This document shows, piece by piece, positions 3,964 through 32,000 of a DNA stretch of 32,000 nucleotides. Positions within the stretch are counted from its first letter, which is position 1, and each line of letters begins with the position of its first letter. The notes beneath the pieces were generated by a model, which had not been told where the DNA came from, ran no database searches, and was given only the letters and a program-made list of their open reading frames with translations. A program made the translations under genes and the position numbers. Source of the stretch: Methanococcus maripaludis (GTDB taxonomy: Archaea > AGJL01 > Methanococci > Methanococcales > Methanococcaceae); NCBI RefSeq assembly GCF_002945325.1, contig NZ_CP026606.1, positions 450,001 through 482,000 on the forward strand, given 5' to 3'.

Positions 3964-4047
3964 TAAAAACTTTTATTTTACTTAAATTTTAAAATAAAAC
4001 TGTAAAAAGAGAGTTTTTGATAATTAAAATTCGTCAACATTGATTTT
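3964..4047. repeat. 84-bp direct repeat, copy B; the genuine 3' end of the 137-aa gene plus its downstream region
   Basis: Manual alignment with 3039-3122. Confidence 0.8.
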
Positions 4048-4437
4048 GTAGAATAAATCAGCATCTTTTACATAATATAATTCGTTTCCTTTTTTTATTT
4101 CTTCGATTACTTTATCTTCTGGGACAATGTATCCAACTAAGAACTGATCTATTGTTAAATTACCTTCTGACATGATTTCAGTGGTTTTTGTTGAAAGGTC
4201 TGGCAGTTTAATTTTTTGCAATTTGTGAACTGATAACCTGTCATCTTCAACCAGTTCGACCCATTCGATTTTTTTAACAACGTTTGAGAATGAATCTGGA
4301 TTAGCGTAGTTTTTATAGTCTTCAAATGCTTCAAAACCTTCTAAAGACATTTTATAAAGTGTCGATTTTAAAATATCGCTTAATTCTTCGTGACTTTTTA
4401 GATTTCTTAAAACTTTTTCTTCTATTTCTCCTGACAT
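4024..4437 (-). CDS. conserved hypothetical protein, 137 aa, copy 1 of 2
   Basis: ORF with GGTGA upstream of its start. It has a near-identical paralog at 20999-21412. Confidence 0.8.
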   Translation of the reverse strand: MSGEIEEKVLRNLKSHEELSDILKSTLYKMSLEGFEAFEDYKNYANPDSFSNVVKKIEWVELVEDDRLSVHKLQKIKLPDLSTKTTEIMSEGNLTIDQFLVGYIVPEDKVIEEIKKGNELYYVKDADLFYKINVDEF

Positions 4438-4450
4438 TTGTTTTCACCTT

Positions 4451-4530
4451 ATTTGTAGTTAGATAAATAGTTTGCAATTCTACAAATAAAGTATGCCTAT
4501 TTTTCTATAAATAGTTTGCTATTTTACAAA
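4451..4530. promoter_or_regulatory. divergent promoter region with operator-like repeats
   Basis: A 24-nt direct repeat ATAAATAGTTTGC(A/T)ATT(C/T)TACAAA lies at 4463-4486 and 4507-4530 (22/24 identical, 44 bp apart). An inverted repeat ATTTGTAG / CTACAAAT lies at 4451-4458 and 4480-4487. Confidence 0.5.
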
Positions 4531-10800: not shown

Positions 10801-10892
10801 TGTTCAAAAAACTTTCTAACAGTATTTTCAGTTAATGCCTGCATACTTTTTTCTTTTGCCTCTGATCGATCCATTTTTCCCCTTTCTAACAT
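7860..10892 (-). CDS. replication protein: N-terminal archaeo-eukaryotic primase-polymerase domain fused to an AAA+/SF3-type helicase
   Basis: AEP motifs IIPLDIDI (DxD), YTGHGVQVYY and DLARVLRIPGSNN. Cys cluster CANSPAELKESCKNC. Walker A GQLGTGKS and Walker B LPLIIDEAE. The start is possibly ATG 10874 (AAGGGG RBS). Confidence 0.8.
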   Translation of the reverse strand: MLERGKMDRSEAKEKSMQALTENTVRKFFEQIFSKNSEDTAYLELRAFNTNKKPVSKFYEYPKQLDLFLDESRAVNKKLCVYFGIGLKKEERGTKDATYDKLSIIPLDIDILKDCLDYKDKTKYPETPNEKDLNQLSDSEAFSIVKRYFNSIYLPLEPSWVFYTGHGVQVYYVLNESITEEKLKEFKKVIEFDNVNKGFINADSNIYDLARVLRIPGSNNKKFQEKQGRILSHKNNVYSFDQILNEFKSHVQFKEQVKSENIEETTYEANSEINWDYVPPCVKKALELRKTGSANREIQLFLRAFFMRYFNQDSGNDARKTLEIFKKYSNNFNEELTLKSLEEWFKTRRAPSNCANSPAELKESCKNCSIVNIKRGNPLKSYFLTKRENEELTAEQLEEQLEEKQVLIKRVGGASIINKTWEKELANSTMIMSKNIGSYSKPHINHVQYFNLEDFEYNKELVLNKKVIDILDEEHAFLDFVNTVKTKNVTWEDFAEDYYLTYQHIVKKYDKNQKIKRSKAYGFFGENYSILGNDWELDSKYVCHGKAKKLRELFDLKYEMGEIEDLIYHLDQYLQDDLGKWILEYSMASLFRYYLMDTKKLDMFPNLVITGQLGTGKSARIKLLFAKMFLNLDILNSKKVAGGTGIRLENEQYCNLPLIIDEAEIPEQMYDILKILGTSKRTEDSRYNISTRIENSLIRPLMVSANSIRIEDPALVDRCVIIDVDDLALVNTEDEHRYLIDKINKLGAFIYRNIDKFYEQLKTLDFKASRKNAKESIFYIGKELLKFLFESFGMKYNSSSENPVESYTHTSTLGKRIRKTIVDDVKRIIVTEEGVQYNIYDAVNNSVPRDAYNKLMNKLSAVGVFVKEDRKEGFIKLLLTNESKDHLNIDKLGIYSLRKLKNEEEFDYKEYKIDGKTKKALSMNLMPIEKDREIGFVRNDSENLDSDERIILELIKDEVEEKKSNVVSRAAVISRAMFRNYQEGAVEDKIKVMIDKGILTAFKDQKLMIA

Positions 10893-10902
10893 TAATTTAA
10901 AC

Positions 10903-11880
10903 TCATAGCATTTTCTTAATGTCTTTAATCATTTTCTGCTGCCTTTCTTTAGAATGTGCATAAAATAACGTCGTTTCAATTGATTTGTGCCCCAAATATT
11001 CTTTTACAATTTCAATTGGAATTCCCTGATCTAAAAGATCTACTGCTCGCCCGTGTCTTAAACTGTGGACTACGATTCGTTTGTTTTTTGGGATTTTACC
11101 TTCTTGTTTTAATTCATCAATTGTACTTTTAAATACCTGACCGATCCAACCAACTTTTACGATTCTACCGCCTTTGTTAGTTTGAAAGATCGTATCTTCC
11201 GGCCCCTGTAGTACATTAAATCTGCAGTAGTGCTTTAAAGCTTCAAGCGTGTCGCCTGAGCACGTTACCATTCTTTCTTCACTTCCTTTAGTATCCCTAA
11301 GCTTGAAGAGTCCTTCGTTAAAGTCGCAGTCGCCATACGTGATGTTTAAAGATTCAGAGAGTCTTGCTCCAGTATCCCATAAAAACCGGATGTGTACTGC
11401 ATCCCTTAATTTTGTTCTACTGCTGCTTTTGATAATTTTTTGAAGCACTTGATTTATCAAATCAGCATTTATTGAATCATAGTGCTTTATTTCAAATTTT
11501 GAATATCTTTTTCTTTCCTTACTTTCTTCTTCAAACTGAGAGAAGTTTTTAAGCCGCATAAGTCGGTAAAACACCTTTAACAGTTTAAAATACTTGTCAA
11601 GAGTATTTCTTTGAAGTTTTCGCTCTTTTTCAAGATAATTAAAGAACTTGACAAAGTCGCCGTTATTTGTAATTTCAGGCGTTTTTTCGATTTCTAGGAA
11701 AACAAACGATAAAAATACCCTTAACCTCGTGATGTCATTTCTCAACGTTGTTTTTTTGATTCCATCAAATTCTCGCTCTTCCCTGAAACGGTCGAGCCAT
11801 TCCCTAATTTGTGGAGTTTCTTTTACCTCATCTCGTTTTGGTTTGATAGATATAAGTTTCTCGATGTCCATCTGATTCAC
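10903..11880 (-). CDS. tyrosine recombinase / integrase
   Basis: Catalytic signature GARLSES (R), HSLRHGRA (HxxR) and LGHKSIETTLFYAH (H...Y). The ORF is intact. Confidence 0.85.
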   Translation of the reverse strand: MNQMDIEKLISIKPKRDEVKETPQIREWLDRFREEREFDGIKKTTLRNDITRLRVFLSFVFLEIEKTPEITNNGDFVKFFNYLEKERKLQRNTLDKYFKLLKVFYRLMRLKNFSQFEEESKERKRYSKFEIKHYDSINADLINQVLQKIIKSSSRTKLRDAVHIRFLWDTGARLSESLNITYGDCDFNEGLFKLRDTKGSEERMVTCSGDTLEALKHYCRFNVLQGPEDTIFQTNKGGRIVKVGWIGQVFKSTIDELKQEGKIPKNKRIVVHSLRHGRAVDLLDQGIPIEIVKEYLGHKSIETTLFYAHSKERQQKMIKDIKKML

Positions 11881-12495: not shown

Positions 12496-12647
12496 CCCAA
12501 AAATATTTTGCTTTCATTTTCTTCGACAATTGTTTTAAGTTCATCAAGAACTTCCCTAAGACCTTCCTGGTTTACAAGCCGTCCTTTTGGATTTACTTCG
12601 ACCTGGAGGTTTAAAAGTCCATATTTCCAGTAAGAATAAGTGTCCAT
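12492..12647 (-). CDS. micro-ORF, 51 aa (below the ORF-track cutoff)
   Basis: ATG 12647 is preceded by CAGGTGAAAAAA. Its stop overlaps the start region of the next gene. Manual translation: MDTYSYWKYGLLNLQVEVNPKGRL... Confidence 0.5.
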   Translation of the reverse strand: MDTYSYWKYGLLNLQVEVNPKGRLVNQEGLREVLDELKTIVEENESKIFLG

Positions 12648-12972
12648 TTTTTTCACCTGTTGTAGTAAAATTTTTGAATTTTCCGAAACGTTTATAAATT
12701 GAAACGTCTAGATATATCTCGGGAATGGGAACACGACCACACCGTGCACCTTATTTTTTGATTTGATCATTTTTTTAGATCTAAACTATTTTTCTAGATC
12801 TTTTAGATGATTTTTAAACATTTTAAAGGTTTATTTAGTCTTAATTTCGAATAATTTTAAATATTATAACTTGATATTGCTATTTGGGGTAAATTCGGAT
12901 CCATAATTGTACAAAACGCAATTGTACAAACTTATCGATTTTGAATTTTTACCTTCTTACGCAATTATTTTT

Positions 12973-13212
12973 TCAAGCGTTTAGGTAGTCGATTCTTTCA
13001 ATTTTGAACATTCTATCTCGTTTCCTGTTCGTCTTCATGTCAATTTTTCTCTTGATTTTTAAAAATTCTGGACGGCTTAAAACTTTTAATTTGCATTTTT
13101 CGTCTTTTACAAGTTTCAAAATTCTAAGTAATTCGTTTTTACCACTTGCTACACCGTAACTTTCAGGAATTGCTCCTTTTTTAATGATATAATGAAATTT
13201 CACTGTTTTCAC
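12973..13212 (-). CDS. small basic protein, 79 aa
   Basis: ORF in the track. GAGGTGA lies just upstream of an in-frame GTG. Confidence 0.5.
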   Translation of the reverse strand: MKTVKFHYIIKKGAIPESYGVASGKNELLRILKLVKDEKCKLKVLSRPEFLKIKRKIDMKTNRKRDRMFKIERIDYLNA

Positions 13213-14567: not shown

Positions 14568-14963
14568 ATGATTGAGATTTTTAACCAAAAATTCGTAAAA
14601 GATATTCTTACTTTAGTATTCGAGAACTCAGAAGGAATGTTTTTTACAGATCTTCAGGATAAACTAACTGAAACGTATGGGAGCATTCATCAAAGTGCAG
14701 TAAGCCGTGCAATATCCACATTATTTCAAAATAGAATGATTGAAAAATTGGAAGTTAGAGTGGACCAAAAAAATATTCCTAAAAGTTTCTATAGAATAAC
14801 GGAAACAGGCAAATTTGCTTTTAAAATACTTGAAATGGATAAAGAACTTGATGAAGAAGTAAAAGGAGTTAAATTTCACAACGAAATCAACGGGGATGTT
14901 GGACAAGTTATCAACATTGATAAAGCCGACAGCTTAGAGATTAACTTTAAAAAAGGTAAATAA
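14568..14963 (+). CDS. winged-helix transcriptional regulator, 131 aa
   Basis: The pattern FTDLQDKLTETYGSIHQSAVSRAISTLFQNRMIEKLEV...YRITETGKFAFK fits a helix-turn-helix plus wing. It is a paralog of the 4609 and 21751 ORFs. Confidence 0.6.
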   Translation: MIEIFNQKFVKDILTLVFENSEGMFFTDLQDKLTETYGSIHQSAVSRAISTLFQNRMIEKLEVRVDQKNIPKSFYRITETGKFAFKILEMDKELDEEVKGVKFHNEINGDVGQVINIDKADSLEINFKKGK

Positions 14964-15037
14964 TTACTATTTTGATATTTTATCGGGATTGAATCGATAT
15001 TTTTAAATATTCTTTTTTAAATAATTAAGTTATTAAA
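14921..15037. repeat. cassette-boundary direct repeat R1 (about 117 bp); begins inside the last 14 codons of the 14568 regulator gene
   Basis: Manual alignment with 16473-16589 (full length) and 17732-17809 (first 78 bp). Confidence 0.8.
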
Positions 15038-15060
15038 TTTATTATTTTTGAGGTGGGTTA

Positions 15061-16431: not shown

Positions 16432-16472
16432 TACTTTTAAATTTTAAAGTAAATCGATCTTTTTAAATTTTT

Positions 16473-16589
16473 TAAAGCCGAGGGCTTATGGATTAACTTT
16501 AAAAAAAGTAATTAATTCTATTTTTGATATTTTATCGGGATTTAATCGGTATTTTTAAATATTCTTTTTTTAATAATTAAGTTATTAAC
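16473..16589. repeat. cassette-boundary direct repeat R2
   Basis: It aligns with R1 over its whole length. Its first 45 nt would translate to KAEGLWINFKKSN-stop, a relic of the regulator C-terminus KADSLEINFKKGK-stop. Confidence 0.8.
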
Positions 16590-16635
16590 TTTTATAACGA
16601 TTTATTTTGATATTGTAACTTATGGGGGCAACATA

Positions 16636-17712
16636 TTGTTTACGTTACATAATTCAGTAATAAATACTGCGATCATTGTTTTTGAAAAGATGAGAAAGAA
16701 AGACATCAATGCATATTTTTCTAAGAAATCCTACCAGCACGATTTAAGAATAGAAGGAACTGGGGGAAGTAACGCCTCCCTTTTTGAAAGTTGGATATCG
16801 CAATTTCCCCCCGAAATCCAATTAGAATGTTTAAATGAATTAATGCAAAAATATGGCCCTGATGACGATCAAGGTCTTGGTGAGCTTTTAGAAAGTGAAA
16901 CTATTCAATATTCTAAATATTTATCTAAAAATGAATCAGGTTTAAACAATAATAAAAATGAAAAATTAGATTTTGGAGGGGTTACTATGGCAACCAATAA
17001 AAAAAAGAAAATATTTATAAGTCATTCTTCAAAAGATAAAGAATATGCAAAGCTTTTAAGAGATGTTCTGGAAAATGCCGGTTTAACCCATGATCAAATA
17101 TTTTGCACATCCCTAACGGGACATCGAAATGAATTTGGAAAAAATTTCTTAGACAATATAAAAAACAAGCTAAATGATGATTACTTAATATTATTCCTTC
17201 TTTCTAGAAATTTCTATGAAAGTCCCATGTGTATGTGTGAATTAGGTGCAGCATGGGTTAAAACAAAAGAATCCGTTCCCGTATTAATCCCCCCTTTTGA
17301 TTACGACGACATGAATATGACAATAAAACATACTGAAGGTTTTAAAATAAATGAGAAGGATAGAATACACGAATTTAAGGATTATTTAGATTCTAACTTT
17401 AATAATAAACCAATTCCTGTTTCCATTTGGAATGAACGAACTGAAAAAACTTTTTCAGATATCATTAAATTAATTGAAAAAGATTCAAAAAATGCTAAAA
17501 AGTCCTCCAAAAAAACAACTGCAAAGAAAACAAGTGATAAAAAGTCTAAAAACTCAGAAAATAAAACTTCAAAATCAAAAACTGCTAAAAAACCTACTAA
17601 TGCTAGAAAAACCAGTACTACAAAAAAATCAGATGATCCTTTTAATATTAATATATCAACAGATAGTTCAATATCAGGTATTCTTGGCGGAAATTCTAAA
17701 AAATTATTCTAA
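16636..17712 (+). CDS. TIR-domain protein with a Lys/Ser/Thr-rich basic C-terminal tail
   Basis: The segment KIFISHSSKDKEYAKLL...LILFLLSRNFYESPMCMCELGAAW is a canonical prokaryotic TIR pattern including the catalytic Glu. The tail is KKSSKKTTAKKTSDKKSKNSENKTSKSKTAKKPTNARK. There is an alternative strong internal start at ATG 16987. Confidence 0.8.
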   Translation: MFTLHNSVINTAIIVFEKMRKKDINAYFSKKSYQHDLRIEGTGGSNASLFESWISQFPPEIQLECLNELMQKYGPDDDQGLGELLESETIQYSKYLSKNESGLNNNKNEKLDFGGVTMATNKKKKIFISHSSKDKEYAKLLRDVLENAGLTHDQIFCTSLTGHRNEFGKNFLDNIKNKLNDDYLILFLLSRNFYESPMCMCELGAAWVKTKESVPVLIPPFDYDDMNMTIKHTEGFKINEKDRIHEFKDYLDSNFNNKPIPVSIWNERTEKTFSDIIKLIEKDSKNAKKSSKKTTAKKTSDKKSKNSENKTSKSKTAKKPTNARKTSTTKKSDDPFNINISTDSSISGILGGNSKKLF

Positions 17713-17731
17713 TTCTTTCTTTTTTAAATTT

Positions 17732-17809
17732 TAAAGCCGATGGACTTGAAATTAACTTTAAAAAAGGAAAATAATTACTATTTTGATATTTTATCAGGAT
17801 TGAATCGAT
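17732..17809. repeat. cassette-boundary direct repeat R3 (shorter, 78 bp)
   Basis: It aligns with the first 78 bp of R1. It would translate to KADGLEINFKKGK-stop. Confidence 0.75.
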
Positions 17810-17949
17810 CTTGTTTTAAATTTTTAAAGTGCACTTTAAAACATAATTATATTATAAATTAAGCCTATATAATGAGGTAATTTTTAATTTTAACTCACTA
17901 AAATATTCATAATCAAAACGGTAATCAATAAATCAAAAGGCGATTTCAA

Positions 17950-20016
17950 TTGAATTTTTTCAAAATAACAACGTGTTTATTATTACTTTTTGCATTAATT
18001 TCAGTAAATTATTCTGCTGAATTTGTAGATGATGGACAGTATGTCTATTGTAAATTAACAAACGAAAATTTGGGTGAATTTGGTATATTGAATAGATCTA
18101 TCTCAGGCACAGATAATGTTTATCTTGTAACGGGATTTTCTGAAAGTGCTAATTTGCCAAATAATACTTATCTTGACTTATCATTAGATAAATACTTTCC
18201 AAATGTTGGAAATCAAGGTAAAATCGGTTCATGTACCTCATGGGCTTGTTCATACTATGCAAATTCATATTTACAGGCAAGAATTAACAACTGGGATTTA
18301 AAAGGAAATGACAGTTCTAAATGTTTGAATCCGTTGTGGACGTATAATAAAATGAACAATGGGGAAATATACCTTGGAGCTAACTCCGAAGATACATTAA
18401 AAATGCTTTCAAGAATTGGTGCTGTAACTTATGAAACAATGCCTGAAAATGAGAGCTATACTTTTTGGGGCGATGAAGATGACTGGCTTGAAGCACCCCA
18501 ATACAGAATAACAGGCTTTGATTTCACCCTAACGAGTAATACTGAAATTATAAAATCATGGTTGAACGAAGGTTCAATCGTAATTATTGCAATCCATTAC
18601 GATGATTTAAGAAATTGTTTTGAAAATACATCCATAATTTCAGATCACTGCCAATCTCATGAGGACGCAACTCACGCGGTCGTAATTGCAGGGTATAATG
18701 ACAGCATGTCAAAAGATAATGAAACAGGAGTTTTTAAAGTTGTGAATTCTGAAGGCCCATTATGGGGCCCTAATGGTGATGGATGTTACTATATGACGTA
18801 TGATGCAGTTTCAAATCTAAAAGATTGTTATTGTGCTAGGATATCTGATGCAGTGTACAATACTTCAGATTCTCACCCCGAACTTATTGGGTATGTACGG
18901 TTTGATCCCGAAAATAAAGGTACAAAAGATCAAAACATAATTTTTGGAATTGGAAATGAGTCAAATATTTCTGGATATGTAGATATTTTTGGAAGTCTTT
19001 ATTGTAATCAAAATGGCGGAAACGGCTCAATGCCTGATTTTATCGTAATTGATTTGACTGACTGGAAATCTGAATTTGAAAACTCATTAAACACCACTGG
19101 AAAAGGATATTACTTTGTTAATTTTTCAAATGGAACGGAAACTTCAATAATTTCTGAATTTGGAATAATTAAATACAGCTCTTATCCAGATATCGAAGAA
19201 ATAAATACATTAAATTCGTATGCTTGCAATAAATCAGTAGTATTTAAGTTTTACAGTAAAACAGCCCCCGAAATTATTAATTCAAGCGTAAATGTTTTAG
19301 AAAACGAAGTTATTGTTTCAATAAGTGCAGAAGACGTTGAAAACGACCTATGGGGCGTAAACGTATACTTTGACGGTTCAAATGAATATTATTCATTAAA
19401 CGGTACAAATGAAACGTTTAACGGCTCATTTGATAAATCCATGTTTTCATACGGCGAACACTACGCAATATTTGAAGCGTTTGATGGTTCAGGAAACGTG
19501 AATAATAGTGAAATGGTTGCTTTTGAAATTTCAGCCCCAGCTACTTCTTCAAGAAGTACTGGAAACCATTATAGTTCCGATCTTTCTGATGGAATTAGTT
19601 CTGGAACCATTAAAAGAGCAGTTTCAAATTCAAATATTATATATGGAAGCGATGTAGATGAAGGATATGCTTTGAATTTGAGAGAGAATGTTAAAAATGG
19701 AAACGATTACGAACTTTCAGGAGATACAATAATTGTTGGTGGACCAGAAGCAAACGGATTTGCTGAAAAGTACGATTCAGAGTTTGAAATTTCAATTACA
19801 AACGACTATCCTGGGGAAAATAAAGGGCTAATTCAAGTGAAAAATATTGAAGTACGCGACGGAAACATAATCAAAACTTATCAGGTAATATATATTGCAG
19901 GTTCTGACAGGTTTGGAACACAGGCTGCTTTAGAATACTTTAAAACTTTAGATGAGCTTCCCGATATGCCCCTTACTGTTGAATGGACTGAAAATGGACC
20001 TGTGGTTGTTGAATAA
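17950..20016 (+). CDS. secreted papain-like (C1 family) cysteine peptidase with C-terminal surface-attachment domains
   Basis: Signal peptide MNFFKITTCLLLLFALISVNYSA. Catalytic motifs NQGKIGSCTSWA (Q, C), HAVVIAGYND (H) and VVNSEGPLWGPNGDGCYYM (N, W). The C-terminus IIVGGPEANGFAEKY...IYIAGSDRFGTQAALEYF resembles the Methanococcales S-layer C-terminal region. It has many N-x-S/T sequons. Confidence 0.8.
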   Translation: MNFFKITTCLLLLFALISVNYSAEFVDDGQYVYCKLTNENLGEFGILNRSISGTDNVYLVTGFSESANLPNNTYLDLSLDKYFPNVGNQGKIGSCTSWACSYYANSYLQARINNWDLKGNDSSKCLNPLWTYNKMNNGEIYLGANSEDTLKMLSRIGAVTYETMPENESYTFWGDEDDWLEAPQYRITGFDFTLTSNTEIIKSWLNEGSIVIIAIHYDDLRNCFENTSIISDHCQSHEDATHAVVIAGYNDSMSKDNETGVFKVVNSEGPLWGPNGDGCYYMTYDAVSNLKDCYCARISDAVYNTSDSHPELIGYVRFDPENKGTKDQNIIFGIGNESNISGYVDIFGSLYCNQNGGNGSMPDFIVIDLTDWKSEFENSLNTTGKGYYFVNFSNGTETSIISEFGIIKYSSYPDIEEINTLNSYACNKSVVFKFYSKTAPEIINSSVNVLENEVIVSISAEDVENDLWGVNVYFDGSNEYYSLNGTNETFNGSFDKSMFSYGEHYAIFEAFDGSGNVNNSEMVAFEISAPATSSRSTGNHYSSDLSDGISSGTIKRAVSNSNIIYGSDVDEGYALNLRENVKNGNDYELSGDTIIVGGPEANGFAEKYDSEFEISITNDYPGENKGLIQVKNIEVRDGNIIKTYQVIYIAGSDRFGTQAALEYFKTLDELPDMPLTVEWTENGPVVVE

Positions 20017-20127
20017 TTAATTTATTTTTCTTTTTTTAATATTTTGTGGTATTTGCGCAAAAAATCAACACTTTTAAATATACTTCTTTTTAAAAACTTA
20101 AAGTAAAACTATTTCTTAAATTTAAAC

Positions 20128-20998: not shown

Positions 20999-21412
20999 TT
21001 AAAATTCGTCGACATTGATTTTGTAGAATAAATCAGCATCTTTTACATAATATAATTCGTTTCCGGATTTGATTTCTTCGATTACCTTATCTTCTGGGAC
21101 AATATATCCAACTAAGAACTGATCTATTGTTAAATTGCCTTCTGACATGATTTCTGTGGTTTTTGTTGAAAGGTCGGGTAATTTGATTTTCTGCAATTTG
21201 TGAACTGACAACCGGTCATCTTCAACCAGTTCGACCCATTCAATTTTTTTAACAACGTTTGAGAATGAATCTGGATTTGCGTAATTTTTGTAGTCTTCGA
21301 ATGCTTCAAAACCTTCTAAAGACATTTTATAAAGTGTTGATTTTAAAATATCGCTCAATTCTTCGTGGCTTTTTAGATTTCTTAAAACTTTTTCTTCTAT
21401 TTCTGCTGACAT
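20999..21412 (-). CDS. conserved hypothetical protein, 137 aa, copy 2 of 2
   Basis: It differs from 4024-4437 at 25 of 414 nt by manual alignment, giving only 2 amino-acid changes (G3A, K116S). Confidence 0.8.
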   Translation of the reverse strand: MSAEIEEKVLRNLKSHEELSDILKSTLYKMSLEGFEAFEDYKNYANPDSFSNVVKKIEWVELVEDDRLSVHKLQKIKLPDLSTKTTEIMSEGNLTIDQFLVGYIVPEDKVIEEIKSGNELYYVKDADLFYKINVDEF

Positions 21413-21553
21413 TTCTTTTCACCTTTTTCATCTTCTTTAATTTTAACTTCTACTTGTTTTCCAACTAGTTTTTTAGGTAATGTTATGTGTCCAGTGTTTC
21501 CGAATGGTTTCACGTTCTTTTCAATTGTTTTTTCATTTTTGATTCTTCATCAT
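21397..21553 (-). pseudogene. frameshifted small SpoVT/AbrB-like (DUF2080-like) gene
   Basis: The frame containing VKPFGNTGHITLPKKLVGKQVEVKIKE lacks a proper start. ATG 21553/21550 reads MMKNQK-stop. Removing one A from the A5 run at 21536-21540 fuses the two frames. Confidence 0.45.
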
Positions 21554-25499: not shown

Positions 25500-25731
25500 G
25501 GATGTAATTTATAATATTTTTTTAACTATTTTTCTTTGATTTTAAAGCTAAAAAACGAATTTAAAACGTTATTTCAATAAATTATAAATAATATAAGCTC
25601 TTTTATTTAATCAGGTAGAGTAAATTTTTTTAATTCTTATTTTGAGATTTATCAATCGTTGAAAAATAAGATAAGCCCCGTGATAACTCTATCGACTTTT
25701 TTAAATATCCTCATTTCCCCCTCTTTTTAAG

Positions 25732-26067
25732 GTGATTATTTTGATTAAAATCTGTCCGTATTGTTTAAAGCCTGTTGAACATTTTGAAAGGGATTATCAC
25801 AAATCCGAAGTCAAAGCTGTCAATGTTCATACGAGTAACAAGAATTGCAGTGTTTTACAGACTGGTTTTGTTAAAAATCAGGCGAAATGTTCAAACATTC
25901 AGAGTTTGAAAATAAATGCAGGAAAAATTGCTAAAGATTTGAATTTATCTGAAATTCAAAAGAAAGACTTTTTTAATTCGATTATCAAGTTAAAACGACA
26001 TAAAAACCACCTGAAAGATTATGTTATTTTGCAAAGTGCATTAAACACCGTTTTGGTGGGTGGTTAA
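25732..26067 (+). CDS. small Cys/His zinc-finger-like protein, about 108-111 aa; first gene of the membrane/secreted operon
   Basis: ICPYCLKPVEHFERDYH near the N-terminus. AAGGTGA at 25729-25735 followed by in-frame TTG 25741. Confidence 0.55.
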   Translation: MIILIKICPYCLKPVEHFERDYHKSEVKAVNVHTSNKNCSVLQTGFVKNQAKCSNIQSLKINAGKIAKDLNLSEIQKKDFFNSIIKLKRHKNHLKDYVILQSALNTVLVGG

Positions 26068-28021
26068 TTTGATAAAACGTTATTTTCTTTTTTTGTTGGT
26101 TTTAATGTGTGCAGTTGGTACAGTTAATGCCGTAAACCCTACTGTTCCAGATATGTGTACCGCCACAGAATTTTATGTCATTCTTTCAGATGACACAATG
26201 TCACAAGATTTAGTTATTTCGACATTATCTGCTTATGATTTTAGCGTGTCCGCACCAGTAATATCTGGCATTGACAGTCAAACTATTTATTTTGAGTCAG
26301 AAAATGACCTTGGGCGGTTTTGTTCAATAATAAGTACAACAAATAAAGTATTACCTTTTGCAGGGGCTTTTGATGTTTATAAAAATGGGGAAAGAACTCC
26401 CATGACCGTGATATTACTTGACGGTCAAGCATATACTCCGTATGGTGACTCATTTTATCAGTATGTCGATCTGAATATGACAGGTTCCCAAATAGGCTAT
26501 GTTTATGCATGGATTTCTAACACATACAGCCAAAATTATTTAACCTTGCTCCTTAACGATGCGACGGTAGTTTCATGTTCGGGGGACGCTTCAAAAACTC
26601 AATATCTATCCAGTACATTTTTTCAAAATAATGTACTCGCTATTCATTGGAAAAACTTAAATGGTTATGATAAATTAACTGCTTCTATCGTATTATTTGA
26701 TTATGTGGATTCTGCCACGTATTCGCCAGATGATAGGTGCGATTTTACAGTATCCGAGATATACACGCCACCAGAACGGGCAACCATTGATATATACACA
26801 GAACCCGCAGTCGATATATACAATAATCAAAATAACGAATTTTTGGGAACAACAGATAACGGCGGGTATTTGGCTTTGTCTTTGTTTCTTGGCGAAACTA
26901 CATTAAAATTCGTTAAAGATGGATACTGGGACACTTTAAAAACATTTACGGTAGCTACAGAAAACAATAGTGAAATATATGTTTCAATGACCCCAAGAAA
27001 TGCCATTTTCCAAGTTTCAAAAGAATTTTCTGGAAATATCTATCCAAATTCAGTCGCTTCTCTTTCAATGGATGTAATCCCGGTTAAAACAGCATATGCT
27101 ACAAAATTGAGAGTTTCAGGAGTAGAAGTAAACAAAGTTTATTATCAAACACAAGAACTCCCAAAAACAGCTGATGGATCTTACATTATTGGCGATATGT
27201 CAAGCCCCCAAAATATTGTAATTGATTTTAAAACTACGTCGTCCTGGGGTGAAAGGGCGTTTACTGTCGAATTATCTGCAACAGATATCGAAGGAACAGC
27301 CTATACAAACTTAGAAACGATTAATTATAATGTGTTAGAACTTCCGTTTTTATTTGAAACACCTGATCAATGGGCCATTGGTTCGAATGACGTAACTTTA
27401 ACAGATATGTCTGGTGAATCATATTCTGTTCTTATGGTTTTGTATGATGAATCAGGAACTGAAAAGTGGAGTTCAAGCACAAATCTTTTAGAATACTGCG
27501 ATTACACGTTTGAAGTTCCAATTGAAGACGCAGGAGAATACACTCTTGAATTGAACGCAAAATCTGGAACTGTTAAATCATACTATTCGATTGAAATAAT
27601 CGAGCCTGTATCATTAATTAGTGATTTTTTAACTGCATCTCCCGGAAATGTTGCTACAGTGCAGTTTAAAATTTCAAACCCGACTGAAAGCGTAAAATAC
27701 TATACTGCTGAATTATCGTGTCCATTTTACAATGAAACAGTTGATAAAACGTTTTCAATCGCCCCTGGAACAGTTGAAAAAACAGTTGACATTTCGTTTG
27801 AAGTTCCTGAAGGTCTTGAAATGGAATACTACCAGTTAACACTTGAAGTATTCAATGAAGGAGATACAGAGCCGATATATTCTGGAAATATTGTTTTAAC
27901 AATTTCGACTAGTTCACTTTTCCTGGCTTCAGTTCCTGGGGGTAACACTACACTAATTCTTTTAGCTGCTGCAGTTCTTTTAATTGCGGGAACATTTGCA
28001 GCATTGAGGCTGAAAAAATGA
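26060..28021 (+). CDS. large secreted surface protein, about 650 aa, with signal peptide, PEGA/CarboxypepD_reg-like and CARDB-like beta domains, and a C-terminal TM anchor
   Basis: Signal sequence IKRYFLFLLVLMCAVGTVNA. The segment IDIYTEPAVDIYNNQNNEFLGTTDNGGYLALSLFLGETTLKFVKDGYWD is PEGA-like. The C-terminus is LILLAAAVLLIAGTFAALRLKK. The likely start is TTG 26069, after GGTGGGTGG. Confidence 0.75.
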   Translation: MVNLIKRYFLFLLVLMCAVGTVNAVNPTVPDMCTATEFYVILSDDTMSQDLVISTLSAYDFSVSAPVISGIDSQTIYFESENDLGRFCSIISTTNKVLPFAGAFDVYKNGERTPMTVILLDGQAYTPYGDSFYQYVDLNMTGSQIGYVYAWISNTYSQNYLTLLLNDATVVSCSGDASKTQYLSSTFFQNNVLAIHWKNLNGYDKLTASIVLFDYVDSATYSPDDRCDFTVSEIYTPPERATIDIYTEPAVDIYNNQNNEFLGTTDNGGYLALSLFLGETTLKFVKDGYWDTLKTFTVATENNSEIYVSMTPRNAIFQVSKEFSGNIYPNSVASLSMDVIPVKTAYATKLRVSGVEVNKVYYQTQELPKTADGSYIIGDMSSPQNIVIDFKTTSSWGERAFTVELSATDIEGTAYTNLETINYNVLELPFLFETPDQWAIGSNDVTLTDMSGESYSVLMVLYDESGTEKWSSSTNLLEYCDYTFEVPIEDAGEYTLELNAKSGTVKSYYSIEIIEPVSLISDFLTASPGNVATVQFKISNPTESVKYYTAELSCPFYNETVDKTFSIAPGTVEKTVDISFEVPEGLEMEYYQLTLEVFNEGDTEPIYSGNIVLTISTSSLFLASVPGGNTTLILLAAAVLLIAGTFAALRLKK

Positions 28022-30048
28022 TGAATTCAAAACTATTTTCTATTTTCTGCATTTTTTTAATTGCTTCTCTACCCTCTGCGAATGCTATTTCGGTATTGGG
28101 ACATGAATTAAATGCAGGATGGGATGATGTAGCAGCCCTTGGTGTTGGGGGAGTTGCACTTGGTGCAGTTGCAGTAACTGCCGGAGCTCCCGTACTTGTT
28201 GTTGCAGGAATTGGAATTGGTGGAGCGATTGCAGTCGATTATGCGTATAGGTGGGCTACAGGAAAAGACGTAGAAGAATCTGCAGCAGTTACGGGAGCTG
28301 TAAAGACGAACGTGACTGATGAAGAATATGTAAATGGTTCTTACGTCTACGAAGAACTTGCAGGATACCGACAATACTCAGAAGAATCTGCAGCAAAGGA
28401 TATTGCAGAAATCAAAGATAAATTAGAGTCCGGAATTGGAACATACTCGTTTAAAACTTCAGGGACTTTATCAGACGTTTCAGTTTCGATGAAAGGACCT
28501 GACAAAATATATGGGTTTTCAGCGTTTCCAGTTCAGTTGAAGTTTGATGAAGCATTAACTGGCTCAAAAAGTTCCTATGTAAAAATTGAAAGTGTAAAAA
28601 TATACCTTGTAGATTCTGATGGCGTTAAATGGAATGAAAGGACATATTCAGATGATATAAAACTTCAAGAAGAATCAAATGATTATCCCGATTCAATTGA
28701 AGAATATATTTTAAATTTCACAATGAAAGCGCCTGATCCATACATTGGAAAGGCAAAATCGCAAGTAACAAATGCCCCAGATAGAGAAATTCTTCAGGAG
28801 CTCTTAGGAGCAGAAGTTAAAGAGTTTGAACTTGTTGTTGAAATTAATGGATATGCAAAACTGTACAAAGAAGAATCAGGATACAAACTGGATCCGATAA
28901 CGGGTCTAGAAGTATGGAAAACCTGGGAAGAATATGATAAAACAATTACAATAGATACAAAACTTACAACCCTTGAAGCATGGGATAGAATACACAACGG
29001 TGTTTATTATGTTGATGGAGCTGATGGATCCCTCCCAACTAAATTCGTAAACGAAGTAACCCCAATAGCCTATTCTTCTTATGCAAATGGAGCAACTTCA
29101 AACATTATTGGTCGAGTTTGGGCAAGTCCTGTACACTGCTACAATTCATCAGCACAGTACAAATTTATCCTTGTTGGACAACCTGAGAATTTAAAGCCGG
29201 TTCCAGTAACTATTGAAGATGATTATAGGGCCTTAGTCCTAAAATTAAGAGATGATGGGGTTGCAACAATTGCTTCAGAAACTCCTGGAAACTTCCAGAA
29301 TATGGCAGTCCATAATGGGGTTACAACTTCGCTTAATTATCTAAAAGACGATTCTACAGAAGCTTTTGAAACCTATTTTATTGTAATTGCGGATGTTGAC
29401 GATGATATTGACTCAGCACTTCCAGTATGGTGCATTATCCAGCCAAGAATCTCTGTAATTGACAACGTGAAATACTCATTATCTGAAGAATTCAAAGAAG
29501 AAATTCTTGAGTTACTTTCGGATGGCTCAATTTCTGATTCAGATACTGAAAGAATTACAGAAATCATTGAAATTTCTGAAAACAGTTTAAAAGAAAAACA
29601 GTACGTTGCAGAAATTGAATCTGGAAAATACGAAGATAACGAAAAAGCAAGTAATGCAATTTCAAACGCTTTAGAAGATTATGAAAAAGCCTTTGAATAC
29701 TATGAAAAGGCGAAAAATACTGATGATCCTGAAGAGGTAAAAGTTTACACTTATCTTGCAGGGGATATCTATGAACCAGCAGGGGATTACTGGAGTGAAG
29801 CTGCAGAAAAATACAATTTAGGACTTGATGATCAGGGAAATGCACTTGCAAGTAATGCTGAAAAACTTGAAAGTTTGGCATCTGAATACGAACCCAGTTT
29901 ATGGTTTACTGCAGGATCCACCATTTCTGAATGGTGGGATCAGTTTAAGTCTGGTTTTGGTATCGGTGACGTTCCAAACACTGTTTTAATTATTGTTGTA
30001 GTCATAGTCCTCGTCTGTGGTGCAGCAATTGTCATTAAAGTATTATAA
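28018..30048 (+). CDS. large membrane-anchored or secreted protein, 676 aa
   Basis: ATGA overlap with the previous gene. It has an N-terminal signal sequence, a Gly/Ala/Val-rich hydrophobic segment, a helical acidic region and a C-terminal TM (VLIIVVVIVLVCGAAIVIKVL). Confidence 0.75.
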   Translation: MMNSKLFSIFCIFLIASLPSANAISVLGHELNAGWDDVAALGVGGVALGAVAVTAGAPVLVVAGIGIGGAIAVDYAYRWATGKDVEESAAVTGAVKTNVTDEEYVNGSYVYEELAGYRQYSEESAAKDIAEIKDKLESGIGTYSFKTSGTLSDVSVSMKGPDKIYGFSAFPVQLKFDEALTGSKSSYVKIESVKIYLVDSDGVKWNERTYSDDIKLQEESNDYPDSIEEYILNFTMKAPDPYIGKAKSQVTNAPDREILQELLGAEVKEFELVVEINGYAKLYKEESGYKLDPITGLEVWKTWEEYDKTITIDTKLTTLEAWDRIHNGVYYVDGADGSLPTKFVNEVTPIAYSSYANGATSNIIGRVWASPVHCYNSSAQYKFILVGQPENLKPVPVTIEDDYRALVLKLRDDGVATIASETPGNFQNMAVHNGVTTSLNYLKDDSTEAFETYFIVIADVDDDIDSALPVWCIIQPRISVIDNVKYSLSEEFKEEILELLSDGSISDSDTERITEIIEISENSLKEKQYVAEIESGKYEDNEKASNAISNALEDYEKAFEYYEKAKNTDDPEEVKVYTYLAGDIYEPAGDYWSEAAEKYNLGLDDQGNALASNAEKLESLASEYEPSLWFTAGSTISEWWDQFKSGFGIGDVPNTVLIIVVVIVLVCGAAIVIKVL

Positions 30049-30068
30049 TTCTTTAAAACTTTTTTTAG

Positions 30069-30593
30069 GTGATTTTTTTGGCTTCAAACCCAAATAGCTC
30101 AAGCCCTAAATCATTGCCCCATTGGCTAATCTTTTCTTTGAAAATGGTCGGGTGTGGTGTTGGTTTTGCAGGCCTGATGTGGTATATAATGAATAATTCT
30201 GTTATGGGTTCTGATGTTGTTCGGGGCCTTGCAGCAGTTCCATTTGTATTTTACTTAATGGCTGAACTCTTAGATACAATAGTGGACATGAATAAAGTTG
30301 TATACACTCCCCTTTTTAAAAACTATTCTGGACATGTAGCTATTGGATTAACCATTATAACGATAGTTTGCATGTTCTTTGTAACACTTTGGGCCTTGTC
30401 TGGTTCAATTACTCTTTCAATTGGTTCAGCAGGTGCTTCAAGCGTGGTAGTTGCAGCAATCTTTGCATTGTACCTACTTGCCCCAAACACTGGAAAAGAA
30501 AAACTTCTTTTATACATGTTTGTTGGTGCAACAATTGCAACAAAGTTCGCGTACTTGTCAATAATACCAAGTTTCTCAGGCTTTGGGCTTTAG
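30069..30593 (+). CDS. polytopic membrane protein, about 171-174 aa
   Basis: AGGTGA at 30067-30072 with in-frame TTG 30078. There are 4-5 hydrophobic helices. Confidence 0.65.
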   Translation: MIFLASNPNSSSPKSLPHWLIFSLKMVGCGVGFAGLMWYIMNNSVMGSDVVRGLAAVPFVFYLMAELLDTIVDMNKVVYTPLFKNYSGHVAIGLTIITIVCMFFVTLWALSGSITLSIGSAGASSVVVAAIFALYLLAPNTGKEKLLLYMFVGATIATKFAYLSIIPSFSGFGL

Positions 30594-30618
30594 GTGGTTT
30601 AAAATGTAGGTGTAAATT

Positions 30619-30936
30619 ATGATTAATCAATTAATTGTAGTTATCTTATCTTTTATCCTGTCAATGGTTTTAAAACCACAAGTGGAAGTTATTGGTCAGG
30701 GTTTTGGATTATCGGGACTTCTTTCTTGGATTGTTCCAACACTAATTGTTTTATTATGCGTTTGGAAAATAGGTTCTGATAAATGGAATTTAGGCGATTT
30801 AATCGCTTCTTTTGTTTTAATTGTACTTATTTTAATGTATTTTTACCAAGATGTTTCCCAGATTTTCCTTGAATGTTCAAGGATCATGCTTGGGGCATGT
30901 GTCGGTGCAATAGTCGCTTATTCCGCTAAAAAATAG
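30619..30936 (+). CDS. membrane protein, 105 aa
   Basis: AGGTG RBS and about 3 TM helices. Confidence 0.6.
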   Translation: MINQLIVVILSFILSMVLKPQVEVIGQGFGLSGLLSWIVPTLIVLLCVWKIGSDKWNLGDLIASFVLIVLILMYFYQDVSQIFLECSRIMLGACVGAIVAYSAKK

Positions 30937-30951
30937 TGGTGGTGAGTTTAT

Positions 30952-31188
30952 GTGAACTTTGAATCAATAATTCCAATAATTCAAGCTTATTGGATTCAGA
31001 TTGTTATAATAATGCTTGTAACTCTTTTAATTAAAAATATTAAGGCAATAATTCTTGCCACCGCAGTTGTTTTTTCAATAAGTTATTTTGGATTTCTGGA
31101 TTTTTCAAACGTTGATTTTTCGGAAATCATTGAACAGGTTAATTATTTAATTGGAGGTATTGAATGGCAGAAATTATTGGTAAGGTAA
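30952..31188 (+). CDS. membrane protein, 78 aa
   Basis: GGTGGTGAG RBS at 30938-30946, GTG start, 2 TM helices. Confidence 0.55.
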   Translation: MNFESIIPIIQAYWIQIVIIMLVTLLIKNIKAIILATAVVFSISYFGFLDFSNVDFSEIIEQVNYLIGGIEWQKLLVR

Positions 31189-31292
31189 AACGAAAAAAAG
31201 GATCTTTCGTCTACGTTGACGGAAAAGGAAACGTGATTCAAAAGAATCGAAGTGAAATGAAGAAAAAGGCAGGTAAAAAATCTAAAAGGTGA
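31164..31292 (+). CDS. micro-ORF, 42 aa, highly basic
   Basis: GGAGGT at 31153-31158 lies 5 nt before ATG 31164. Manual translation: MAEIIGKVKRKKGSFVYVDGKGNVIQKNRSEMKKKAGKKSKR. It overlaps the end of the previous gene. Confidence 0.45.
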   Translation: MAEIIGKVKRKKGSFVYVDGKGNVIQKNRSEMKKKAGKKSKR

Positions 31293-31297
31293 AACTA

Positions 31298-32000
31298 ATG
31301 GCTAAAAATAATATATGGATTGGCCTTGCGATTGCAGTGATCCTCGTTGCTGCAGGAACGTGGTATTACTTAAGTCAGGATGATGCAGGGGGAATTATTG
31401 TACCTACCGGAACAACATTCTCATCAGATGCAGTATTTAACAGTGAAACGGGGGACGTTTTAATTACATTCAATGCTTCAAAAGAAAATATAACCGCAGA
31501 TTCAATTGAACTATATGTTTCATATGATGAAGTAACATTTACAAAAACAAATACCTTCGAAGACGTGGCATTCCCTATTGATGTTGAAGTAACGCCTGAA
31601 GAAGGAGAAGAAAACCTTTACTATTACGCTGTAGTTTCGTACAGTGACAAAACTTACAGATTGCCTACAGATGCAGGATCTTATGAAACTGTTGAAATAA
31701 TTGTTTCAAACACTACTGAAGAAAATACAGATCTTTTGACGTTCACTGCAGTATCTGACTTTGATAACACCACAGGAATTGTTTTATTCTCGCTTTCCGC
31801 TTCAGAAGACAATAAAACTGCTGATGTTTTATTATTCACTTCATACGATAACACAACATTCACAAATACTGTAAATTCAACCGCATTGGATCTTCCAGGA
31901 ACTTTTGAATTTACTGCAGATGCTGCTGAAACAGATCTTTATTACTACTTAGAAATTGTCTGTGATGGAAACACATCAAGACTCCCTGCTGAAAGTGCTG
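31298..32000 (+). CDS. membrane-anchored surface protein with tandem repeated domains; 3' end beyond the window
   Basis: GGTGA RBS and ATG 31298. I read the frame as open to the window edge, which explains its absence from the track (no stop). It has an N-terminal TM (IWIGLAIAVILVAAGTWYY) and two roughly 95-aa repeats ending LYYYAVVSYSDKTYRLPTDAG and LYYYLEIVCDGNTSRLPAESA. Confidence 0.7.
   Translation, partial: MAKNNIWIGLAIAVILVAAGTWYYLSQDDAGGIIVPTGTTFSSDAVFNSETGDVLITFNASKENITADSIELYVSYDEVTFTKTNTFEDVAFPIDVEVTPEEGEENLYYYAVVSYSDKTYRLPTDAGSYETVEIIVSNTTEENTDLLTFTAVSDFDNTTGIVLFSLSASEDNKTADVLLFTSYDNTTFTNTVNSTALDLPGTFEFTADAAETDLYYYLEIVCDGNTSRLPAESA

Follow-up and report, generated by a model that had tools for sequence, protein, structure and literature searches.

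First eight genes of a probable pT26-2-family core module in a Methanococcus maripaludis-type genome, with an exchanged cassette in the t26-5p homologue

The window, the whole stretch of 32,000 nucleotides (nt) of DNA that was analysed, ends in eight tightly packed genes on the + strand, preceded by a conserved upstream region. The part from 25579 to 32000 very probably represents the first eight genes of the roughly 15-gene core module of an integrative plasmid of the pT26-2 family, in a genome of the Methanococcus maripaludis type. The type of element is already known, the copy in the window being a variant close to an element published in 2009-2010 and analysed anew in 2019. It was compared with the plasmids pT26-2 (Thermococcus sp. 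26/2, GU056179) and pMEFER01 (Methanocaldococcus fervens, NC_013157) and with the integrated element MMPV1 (= MmaS2_IP) of M. maripaludis S2. Positions follow the window numbering. For the genes past its end, L001 was used, a contig identical to the window over an overlap of 5983 nt that extends 8 kb beyond it. The open reading frames (ORFs, lengths in amino acids, aa) and other features of the module are listed below with the basis of their assignment.

25579-25731 (+): conserved upstream region, presumed promoter/leader; similarity to MMPV1 of S2 begins here
25732-26067 (+), likely start TTG 25741: ORF1, 111 aa, small soluble basic protein with four Cys; pMEFER01 110-aa protein
26060-28021 (+), likely start TTG 26069: ORF2, 653 aa, t26-5p homologue (core); BLASTP
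26175-26894 (+): hypervariable, swapped cassette in the gene of the t26-5p homologue (encodes the distal domain, about aa 40-280); comparison with S2
28018-30048 (+): ORF3, 676 aa, t26-6p homologue (core); Pfam, PDB and AlphaFold2 (AF2)
30069-30593 (+), likely start TTG 30078: ORF4, 174 aa, t26-7p homologue (core) with four hydrophobic helices; BLASTP
30619-30936 (+): ORF5, 105 aa, t26-8p homologue with 3-4 hydrophobic helices; BLASTP and alignment
30952-31188 (+): ORF6, 78 aa, t26-9p-position protein with two hydrophobic helices, a short basic loop and a conserved C-terminal GG; position
31164-31292 (+): ORF7, 42 aa, highly basic peptide with 15 K/R; ORF with GGAGGT upstream
31298 to >32000 (+): ORF8, truncated at the window end, t26-10p-position protein, 5' portion only (full length 243 aa in L001, 5349-6080); pMEFER01 match

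A preliminary description of this DNA had reported at least eight co-directional, tightly packed genes, and indeed all eight ORFs lie on the + strand with overlaps or with gaps of at most 29 nt. ORF1 and ORF2 overlap by 8 nt when the start at 26060 is used, or are separated by 1 nt with the start at 26069. The ATGA overlap described for 28018 was found at 28018-28021, between ORF2 and ORF3. Gaps of 20-29, 25 and 15 nt separate ORF3 from ORF4, ORF4 from ORF5 and ORF5 from ORF6, respectively, ORF6 and ORF7 overlap by 25 nt, and a 5-nt gap precedes 31298. Shine-Dalgarno motifs of the GGTG/GGAGG type, of which the GGTG type was also part of that description, are present 5-9 nt 5' of most starts, and their placement suggests slightly shorter true starts for three genes, at TTG 25741, TTG 26069 and TTG 30078. 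The homologue consensus of the 653-aa protein starts with MIKRY, corresponding to TTG 26069, and TTG 30078 is the start chosen in the gene calls of L001. Upon alignment with S2 and contig L017, the sequences were near-identical from 25579 onwards and unrelated upstream of it. The conserved stretch 25579-25731, with an AT-rich TATA-like stretch and AGGTGA 5' of the first gene, presumably acts as the promoter. The G+C content is 0.35-0.38 in 26001-32000 versus mostly 0.24-0.31 (range to 0.36) in 1-26000, in agreement with the higher value noticed before for the operon than for the accessory region.

Topology was assessed with a Kyte-Doolittle hydrophobicity scan, by which 11 of the 15 module proteins carry hydrophobic anchor or transmembrane (TM) segments. 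The two proteins of about 650-680 aa with a signal-like N-terminus and a C-terminal TM segment proved to be those of 653 and 676 aa. The Gly/Ala-rich hydrophobic segment (aa ~36-76) and the acidic helical region (aa 488-626) were found in the latter, and the three small polytopic proteins, the 42-aa basic peptide and the anchored, repeat-containing last protein were all recovered as described. Other domain assignments fared less well. The CARDB-like domain was not confirmed. For the PEGA-like domain, precomputed PF08308/PF13620 annotations in homologues and a string of beta-sandwiches in the AF2 model are favourable, but the 653-aa protein itself had no Pfam match at E<=0.1. The Zn-finger nature of the small first protein is only plausible, with its four Cys conserved in the pMEFER01 homologue but no family match.

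The pT26-2 family is defined by seven core genes, t26-5p, 6p, 7p, 11p, 13p, 14p and 15p (PMC6972569). Three of them were found inside the window and the other four on L001, in the order published for the family, and because the set is complete and colinear the module is assigned to this family. The preliminary description had suggested the link; it is now borne out by the Pfam domains of T26-6p, by the PDB structure 2WB7 and by BLASTP matches of every core gene to pT26-2 and pMEFER01. Against the pT26-2 proteins, matches were obtained for t26-5p, -6p, -7p, -8p, -11p, -13p, -14p and -15p, with E-values from 1.8e-51 to 1.8e-9 for most, 8.3e-96 for t26-14p and 8e-6 for t26-8p. A tblastn search with the proteins of pT26-2 and pMEFER01 gave colinear matches over 25735-36241 of the window plus L001. 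No homologue of t26-4p was found there; t26-4p is not a core gene. Given the identity of L001 over 5983 nt, t26-11p, -13p, -14p and -15p probably lie downstream in the window's own genome as well. The preliminary description had also named the outcomes that would speak against it, namely ordinary chromosomal genes conserved in element-free strains and no associated ATPase. Neither was observed: the genes occur on free plasmids and, in S2, beside a tRNA-Ser attachment site inside MMPV1, and an ATPase of the HerA/FtsK type, the 450-aa t26-14p homologue, lies beyond 32000 on L001.

Among the plasmids of PLSDB, tblastn of the 676-aa protein recovered three only: pMEFER01, a Pyrococcus abyssi plasmid and pT26-2. 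The same protein had no tblastn match in 50,697 phage/virus records. Methanococcus maripaludis is the species name attached to the closest homologues of both large proteins (74-97% identity); these homologues and a DNA identity of 87-91% with S2 put the host within the orders of the family, Thermococcales or Methanococcales. Both pT26-2 and pMEFER01 have the seven core genes in the same order, and the t26-8p and t26-9p/10p/16p positions are also kept in order. Identity to the module proteins is 23-39% for pT26-2 and 26-49% for pMEFER01. Of the two plasmids, only pMEFER01 also has the 4-Cys first gene and the basic peptide, and the integrase and the putative replication protein (Rep) of the window are unrelated to those of either plasmid.

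The closest described relative is MMPV1. The S2 chromosome (BX950229) falls in the 97%-identical cluster, and its module lies inside the published MMPV1 limits of 735,195-773,477, with its first position roughly 400 nt away from tRNA-Ser(tga). Between the 111-aa gene and the t26-16p-position gene, both included, the genes and their order are the same. The DNA is 87-91% identical from window position 25579 to the SBP_bac_3 gene that adjoins the module end in both, and the module proteins are 80-98% identical, except for the t26-5p homologue with 69%. In all 12 genes compared with S2, dN/dS was 0.05-0.34 and all are intact; judged by these ratios, the module is under purifying selection, and a decaying remnant is disfavoured on the same grounds. 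The surroundings differ. The S2 module is near the tRNA-Ser, whereas that of the window is preceded by 25.5 kb of unrelated accessory DNA with an integrase, a PrimPol-type Rep and TIR genes. The downstream cargo differs as well. Past the module and the SBP_bac_3 gene, at 11253-14099 of L001, the genes encode a DNA methyltransferase (N6/N4), a resolvase of the serine type, a protein with DUF6884 and one with a NurA domain, where S2 has other genes. The NurA gene is of note in view of a published proposal that HerA-NurA prepares the DNA that the Ced/Ted systems of archaea transfer (PMC9905601). Two stretches of the window, 12500-13143 and 19833-20024, show 84% and 73% identity to S2 DNA outside MMPV1, across the tRNA-Ser (L016 3016-3660 and 2740-2929), which hints at remnants of a related element at that site.

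The low identity of the t26-5p homologue is concentrated in one part of the protein. The cassette at 26175-26894 has no DNA similarity to S2, while both flanks are about 90% identical. Among 20 Methanococcus homologues, nearly all from M. maripaludis, residues 26-250 are 17-37% identical compared with 70-93% for residues 300-650, and the dN against S2 is 0.63 for codons 30-270 versus 0.05 for codons 270-640. One other strain carries the cassette variant of the window at 94% identity. The distal domain of the t26-5p homologue behaves like an exchangeable specificity cassette. The protein as a whole has the layout of a type-I anchored protein, with a signal peptide, the variable distal domain, a string of beta-sandwiches and a C-terminal TM helix, and its BLASTP E-values are 1.8e-51 with t26-5p and 1.3e-107 with a pMEFER01 'PEGA domain-containing protein'. 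The AF2 model, with a predicted local distance difference test score (pLDDT) of 80.9, consists of a small alpha/beta domain, a jelly-roll-like domain, the beta-sandwich string and the TM helix. Foldseek searches of this model against the PDB and the viral models of BFVD returned only generic immunoglobulin (Ig)/macroglobulin arrays with a TM-score of at most 0.25, for example complement C3, Bap, the Nitrosopumilus S-layer and phage FN3/Big proteins.

The t26-6p homologue is 97% identical to the S2 protein. It combines a signal peptide, a Gly/Ala-rich hairpin-like segment, a three-domain ectodomain and a C-terminal TM helix. The ectodomain is made up of two Ig-like domains and a helical domain (PT26-6P_helical, aa 488-626). 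All three Pfam families built on t26-6p of pT26-2 were matched above the gathering score (PF22092 with 1.7e-26, PF22265 with 7.3e-64 and PF20984 with 4.5e-17), the BLASTP E-value with t26-6p is 2.6e-48, and that with PDB 2WB7, the PT26-6P crystal structure, is 1.5e-47. In the AF2 model the ectodomain has a pLDDT of 80-94 and superposes on 2WB7 with a TM-score of 0.85, so that the crystal fold of the pT26-2 protein is shared. Beyond 2WB7, the best matches were tandem sandwiches of the arrestin/VPS26 type with a TM-score of at most 0.25. No solved structure that suggests a function was among the fold matches listed for this ectodomain, and it has no functional relative among the structures solved up to 2026 that these matches cover. 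The N-terminal 96 residues, including the Gly/Ala-rich segment, were modelled with a pLDDT of 20-33. In the pMEFER01 protein, the equivalent segment looks like a basic-then-hydrophobic signal-anchor. This plain counterpart argues for a membrane hairpin or anchor, which would tether the t26-6p homologue at both ends. A fusion peptide was also considered for the segment and was down-weighted, in view of the pMEFER01 signal-anchor, the pLDDT of 20-33 and the lack of any fusogen among the top matches listed.

The remaining proteins of the window are small, except for the last. The 111-aa protein is 46% identical to the 110-aa protein of pMEFER01 (1.9e-33), with the four Cys (CPxC...C...C) kept, and 92% to the S2 copy; it matched no family in Pfam, PHROG or NCBIfam. 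By these comparisons its gene, the first of the module, is specific to Methanococcales and is no homologue of t26-4p. The t26-7p homologue has E-values of 1.4e-18 with t26-7p and 3.5e-31 with pMEFER01, and the t26-8p homologue 8e-6 and 1.4e-30, respectively. The t26-9p-position protein matches a 93-aa protein of pMEFER01 (1.7e-8) and could be aligned as a family with t26-9p and the copies from metagenome-assembled genomes (MAGs). The 42-aa peptide is 98% identical in S2 and is among the gene calls of every contig. In pMEFER01 its position is taken by a lysine-rich counterpart of 50 aa, and the peptide is, as far as these occurrences go, Methanococcales-specific. The t26-10p-position protein, with 9 N-X-S/T sequons, combines an N-terminal anchor with two repeats that are acidic and rich in sequons. 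Each of the repeats matches a 165-aa protein of pMEFER01 (4.6e-18 and 5.6e-12), and a weak match was found at the t26-10p position of locus L009 (3e-7). A search with NCBIfam was negative for a sorting signal of the archaeosortase type (PGF-CTERM-like) in the C-terminal anchors, as it was for any other family. Profiles of the t26-7p, -8p, -9p, -11p and -15p families found no meaningful match among PDB sequences, and Pfam, PHROGs and NCBIfam had nothing for the module proteins scanned beyond the t26-6p homologue and the ATPase.

Past the window, the order on L001 is a second t26-7p paralogue, t26-11p (2.9e-16), t26-13p (1.8e-9), t26-14p (8.3e-96), t26-15p (7.6e-20) and a t26-16p-position gene. 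The t26-15p homologue set comprises five sequences with 87-97% identity. The t26-14p homologue, with Walker A GKSGYGKT and Walker B FFVVDE, scores above the gathering threshold of Pfam HerA/DUF87 (5.6e-8) and matches the FtsK-like and packaging-ATPase families of PHROGs (phrog_2666, 1.2e-10). Its PDB profile matches are TdpA, HerA, EccC and FtsK, with no VirB4 structure among them, and the VirB4-type AAA_10 family scores only an E-value of 0.028. A Phyre2 similarity of t26-14p to B204 of STIV2 has been reported (PMC6972569). The second t26-7p paralogue (L001 6092-6571, window-equivalent 32041-32520, 2.5e-23) is located between the t26-10p-position gene and t26-11p and has no equivalent in pT26-2 or pMEFER01. 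Tandem t26-7p pairs are present in the Thermococci MAG loci L007 and L008, and at the corresponding position of locus L012 a pair of neighbouring genes is of the expected size (166 and 171 aa).

Profile searches with T26-6p in 1.84 billion representative proteins yielded about 29 true clusters only, which makes this a small family. Divergent extra t26-6p-like paralogues exist in M. maripaludis. One cluster, RLG49933.1, comes from contig QMVX01000008.1 (GCA_003661315.1), a MAG labelled Candidatus Korarchaeota/Thermoproteota. This contig carries a complete syntenic module (L012 116-10394, also L013 and L014) with, by size and order, 5p, 6p, two 7p paralogues, 8p, 9p, 10p, 11p, 13p, the ATPase, 15p and 16p. 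The family is said to be confined to Thermococcales and Methanococcales, so that this contig either widens its range or has been mis-binned. A scan of genome contigs with the T26-6p alignment recovered three Thermococci MAG loci and a 33-aa edge match and missed the Methanococcus genomes, so that it is unusable as a census. The edge match, on DTYI01000159.1 of a Thiotrichales MAG (L010 10001-10096), covers 33 residues of the t26-6p IYGFSAFP region with 52% identity; as no other module gene is present on the contig, it is probably a chance match or a chimeric end and was rejected as a member.

For the movement of plasmids between cells of Euryarchaeota, few conserved machines are candidates, and the core module is among them. 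Mobility of the family is indicated by CRISPR spacers that target its members and by the existence of free and integrated forms (PMC6972569). The module is kept even where replication genes are lost, and a new DNA or protein transfer system has been proposed by the authors (PMC2926602, PMC6972569). The envelope, vesicle and conjugation-like pore ideas of the preliminary description are likewise hypotheses that were already published (PMC2926602, PMC6972569). Literature searches turned up no functional study of the core module.

In view of the motifs and matches of the ATPase, the hydrophobic segments in 11 of 15 proteins, the exchangeable distal domain, the published signs of mobility and the Ced/Ted precedent, the module is tentatively regarded here as a machine for self-transfer of the element, which would span the envelope, depend on cell contact and be driven by the ATPase; this is held with slightly less than even confidence. 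The t26-5p and t26-6p homologues and the t26-10p-position repeat protein would contact another cell, the t26-6p arch being anchored in the membrane at both ends. The exchangeable distal domain of the t26-5p homologue would set partner specificity, a recognition role proposed because this domain is hypervariable and exchanged between strains. The small polytopic t26-7p, -8p and -9p proteins would form a conduit in the membrane, where the bitopic coiled-coil t26-13p would dock the hexameric-type ATPase t26-14p, which would then pump DNA across. That such a DNA-transfer machine is of an undescribed kind, unrelated or very remotely related to type IV secretion, with the cassette swap acting as a host-range switch, is a more speculative proposal that we consider possible but doubtful. 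No new kind of system is added by the window, which holds a near-copy of the core of a published element. The only new points are the t26-5p cassette swap, the layout of the element unlike that of S2 and the possible homologue outside the two orders. An intact copy under apparent purifying selection in M. maripaludis, a genetically tractable mesophile, makes the transfer idea directly testable.

The archaeal Ced/Ted systems and bacterial type IV secretion (conjugation) machinery are of analogous architecture. They encode a HerA/VirB4-superfamily ATPase together with polytopic and small two-helix membrane proteins, as the module appears to do, and archaeal conjugative plasmids have no recognisable relaxase either. 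The small proteins of the module have no detectable sequence relation to VirB2/CedA1/TedC, VirB6/CedA or VirB8, however, and Ced/Ted are without a counterpart of the two large anchored surface proteins. The ATPase scores best with HerA, TdpA, EccC and FtsK, not with VirB4. Several results weigh against a self-transfer machine. All three free plasmids are typed as non-mobilizable by PLSDB. No relaxase or VirD4 family was detected in the ORFs scanned, a TrwB match being at the P-loop level only (E 0.0089). No VirB2-, VirB6- or VirB8-like match was obtained with the t26-7p, -8p, -9p and -11p profiles against all PDB sequences (E<=10), nor with Pfam, NCBIfam and PHROGs for the small proteins. The 450-aa ATPase is much shorter than VirB4, and since its best matches are HerA, FtsK and EccC, it is equally compatible with genome packaging or protein secretion. 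Fold searches of both large proteins gave nothing function-specific. Finally, no element limits or attachment (att) sites were found in the window or L001 (ARAGORN; Rfam, E<=1). Since the polytopic and two-helix membrane proteins that act with the VirB4/HerA-like ATPase in Ced and Ted likewise lack recognisable sequence similarity between the two systems (PMC9905601), the missing similarity to type IV secretion is weak counter-evidence.

As for the attachment sites, the 40 kb examined (window and L001) contains no copy of the 3' end of the S2 tRNA-Ser and no tRNA or tRNA fragment, and a k-mer comparison of the window with the L001 extension revealed no shared repeat. In the Methanococcales branch, the att site is the 3' end of a tRNA-Ser or tRNA-Leu gene, and several M. 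maripaludis members are listed with 'no detectable limits' (PMC6972569); for the latter reason a missing att site is compatible with membership. The limits may be situated beyond these 40 kb.

The main rival reading, though an unlikely one, is that the module builds a particle with an envelope but no capsid, or a 'plasmid vesicle', comparable to pleolipoviruses or the haloarchaeal plasmid pR1SE. Here the two large type-I proteins would be spikes that bind a receptor and insert into or fuse with a membrane, the small membrane proteins would belong to the envelope, the basic 42-aa peptide would condense the DNA and the HerA/FtsK ATPase would load it. Pleolipoviruses and pR1SE, and the membrane-containing viruses PRD1 and STIV2 with their packaging ATPases of the FtsK/HerA type, presumably resemble the module in their anchored spike-like glycoproteins, small membrane proteins and P-loop NTPase. 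The sequence and fold searches gave no match to any virion protein, though, and a capsid gene is missing; Pfam and PHROG recovered no capsid or known virion family in any of the module proteins. The layout of signal peptide, ectodomain and C-terminal anchor in the two large proteins is typical of spikes, and the strain-variable distal domain of the t26-5p homologue, the very basic peptide and the packaging-ATPase match to phrog_2666 would all suit a particle. So would the Gly/Ala-rich hydrophobic segment near the mature N-terminus of the t26-6p homologue, but its plain signal-anchor counterpart in pMEFER01 favours a membrane hairpin over a fusion peptide. In addition, this homologue is unmatched among the phage/virus records searched, and Foldseek of viral models and the PDB gave only generic Ig-like arrays, with no fusogen among the top matches listed. 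The elements were first named as virus-like, but virions were not seen, and element DNA and proteins were not found in vesicles of carrier strains (PMC2926602).

Still less probable is an apparatus for secretion, adhesion or cell-cell interaction that serves the host rather than DNA transfer of the element. It would account for the retention of the core module under purifying selection, for the resemblance of the ATPase to EccC, the FtsK-like ATPase of type VII protein secretion, and for that of the large proteins to adhesins or S-layer-type beta-sandwich arrays. Against a host function, the module invariably occurs together with genes for integration and replication, be it on plasmids or in tRNA-flanked islands, it varies between strains and does not belong to the core genome, and no candidate for a secreted substrate was recognised. 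An ordinary chromosomal S-layer/adhesin operon or a decaying remnant, which the generic beta-sandwich fold of the large surface proteins, the lack of attachment sites for the window copy and the divergent t26-6p-like paralogues of M. maripaludis might suggest, is largely refuted and has a very slight chance at best, with all seven core genes intact and syntenic with free plasmids, the low dN/dS, an integrase and a primase-helicase-type Rep in the same window, and an S2 module within a tRNA-Ser-bounded element.

The accessory region upstream contains an intact tyrosine integrase gene (Phage_integrase) at 10903-11880 on the - strand, 14 kb upstream of the module. The encoded protein has no detectable similarity to the pMEFER01 integrase, and an exact-sequence look-up with its GTG start returned nothing. 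M. maripaludis members of the family have a type II (XerC-like, non-suicidal) tyrosine integrase in the middle of the element (PMC6972569). Next to this gene, 7860-10892 (-) encodes a putative Rep of 1010 aa with a PrimPol-like N-terminus (PHROG primase families, 1e-9 to 4e-6) and a central P-loop GTGKS. Neither Pfam nor the PDB sequences gave a match for it, and it does not resemble the replication proteins of pT26-2 or pMEFER01. Since MCM, MCM-like and PCNA proteins are listed for Methanococcales members (PMC6972569), this Rep may belong to a different replication module or to a neighbouring element.

Two consecutive + strand genes further downstream are defence-type genes of the TIR kind. 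The protein encoded at 15253-16431 matches PDC-M14B and a TIR-effector model and has a weak nucleoside 2-deoxyribosyltransferase-like C-terminus; its gene adjoins the one at 16636-17712, which encodes an SpbK-like TIR-domain protein (PADLOC spbK 2.5e-39, Pfam TIR_2 1.5e-11). The next gene, at 17950-20016 (+) in this AT-rich region, encodes a 688-aa secreted protein with a weak papain-like (Peptidase_C1) match in the N-terminal region (0.0046) and S_layer_C (2.4e-5). An intergenic repeat of about 133 nt is present in three copies with 69-90% identity (14908-15040, 16460-16592 and 17719-17851), each just 5' of one of these three consecutive genes, and may be a promoter or regulatory sequence that they have in common. 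A direct duplication of a 137-aa gene (4024-4453 and 20999-21428; 430 nt, 93.7% identical), with its copies 17 kb apart, brackets the integrase, Rep and defence genes.

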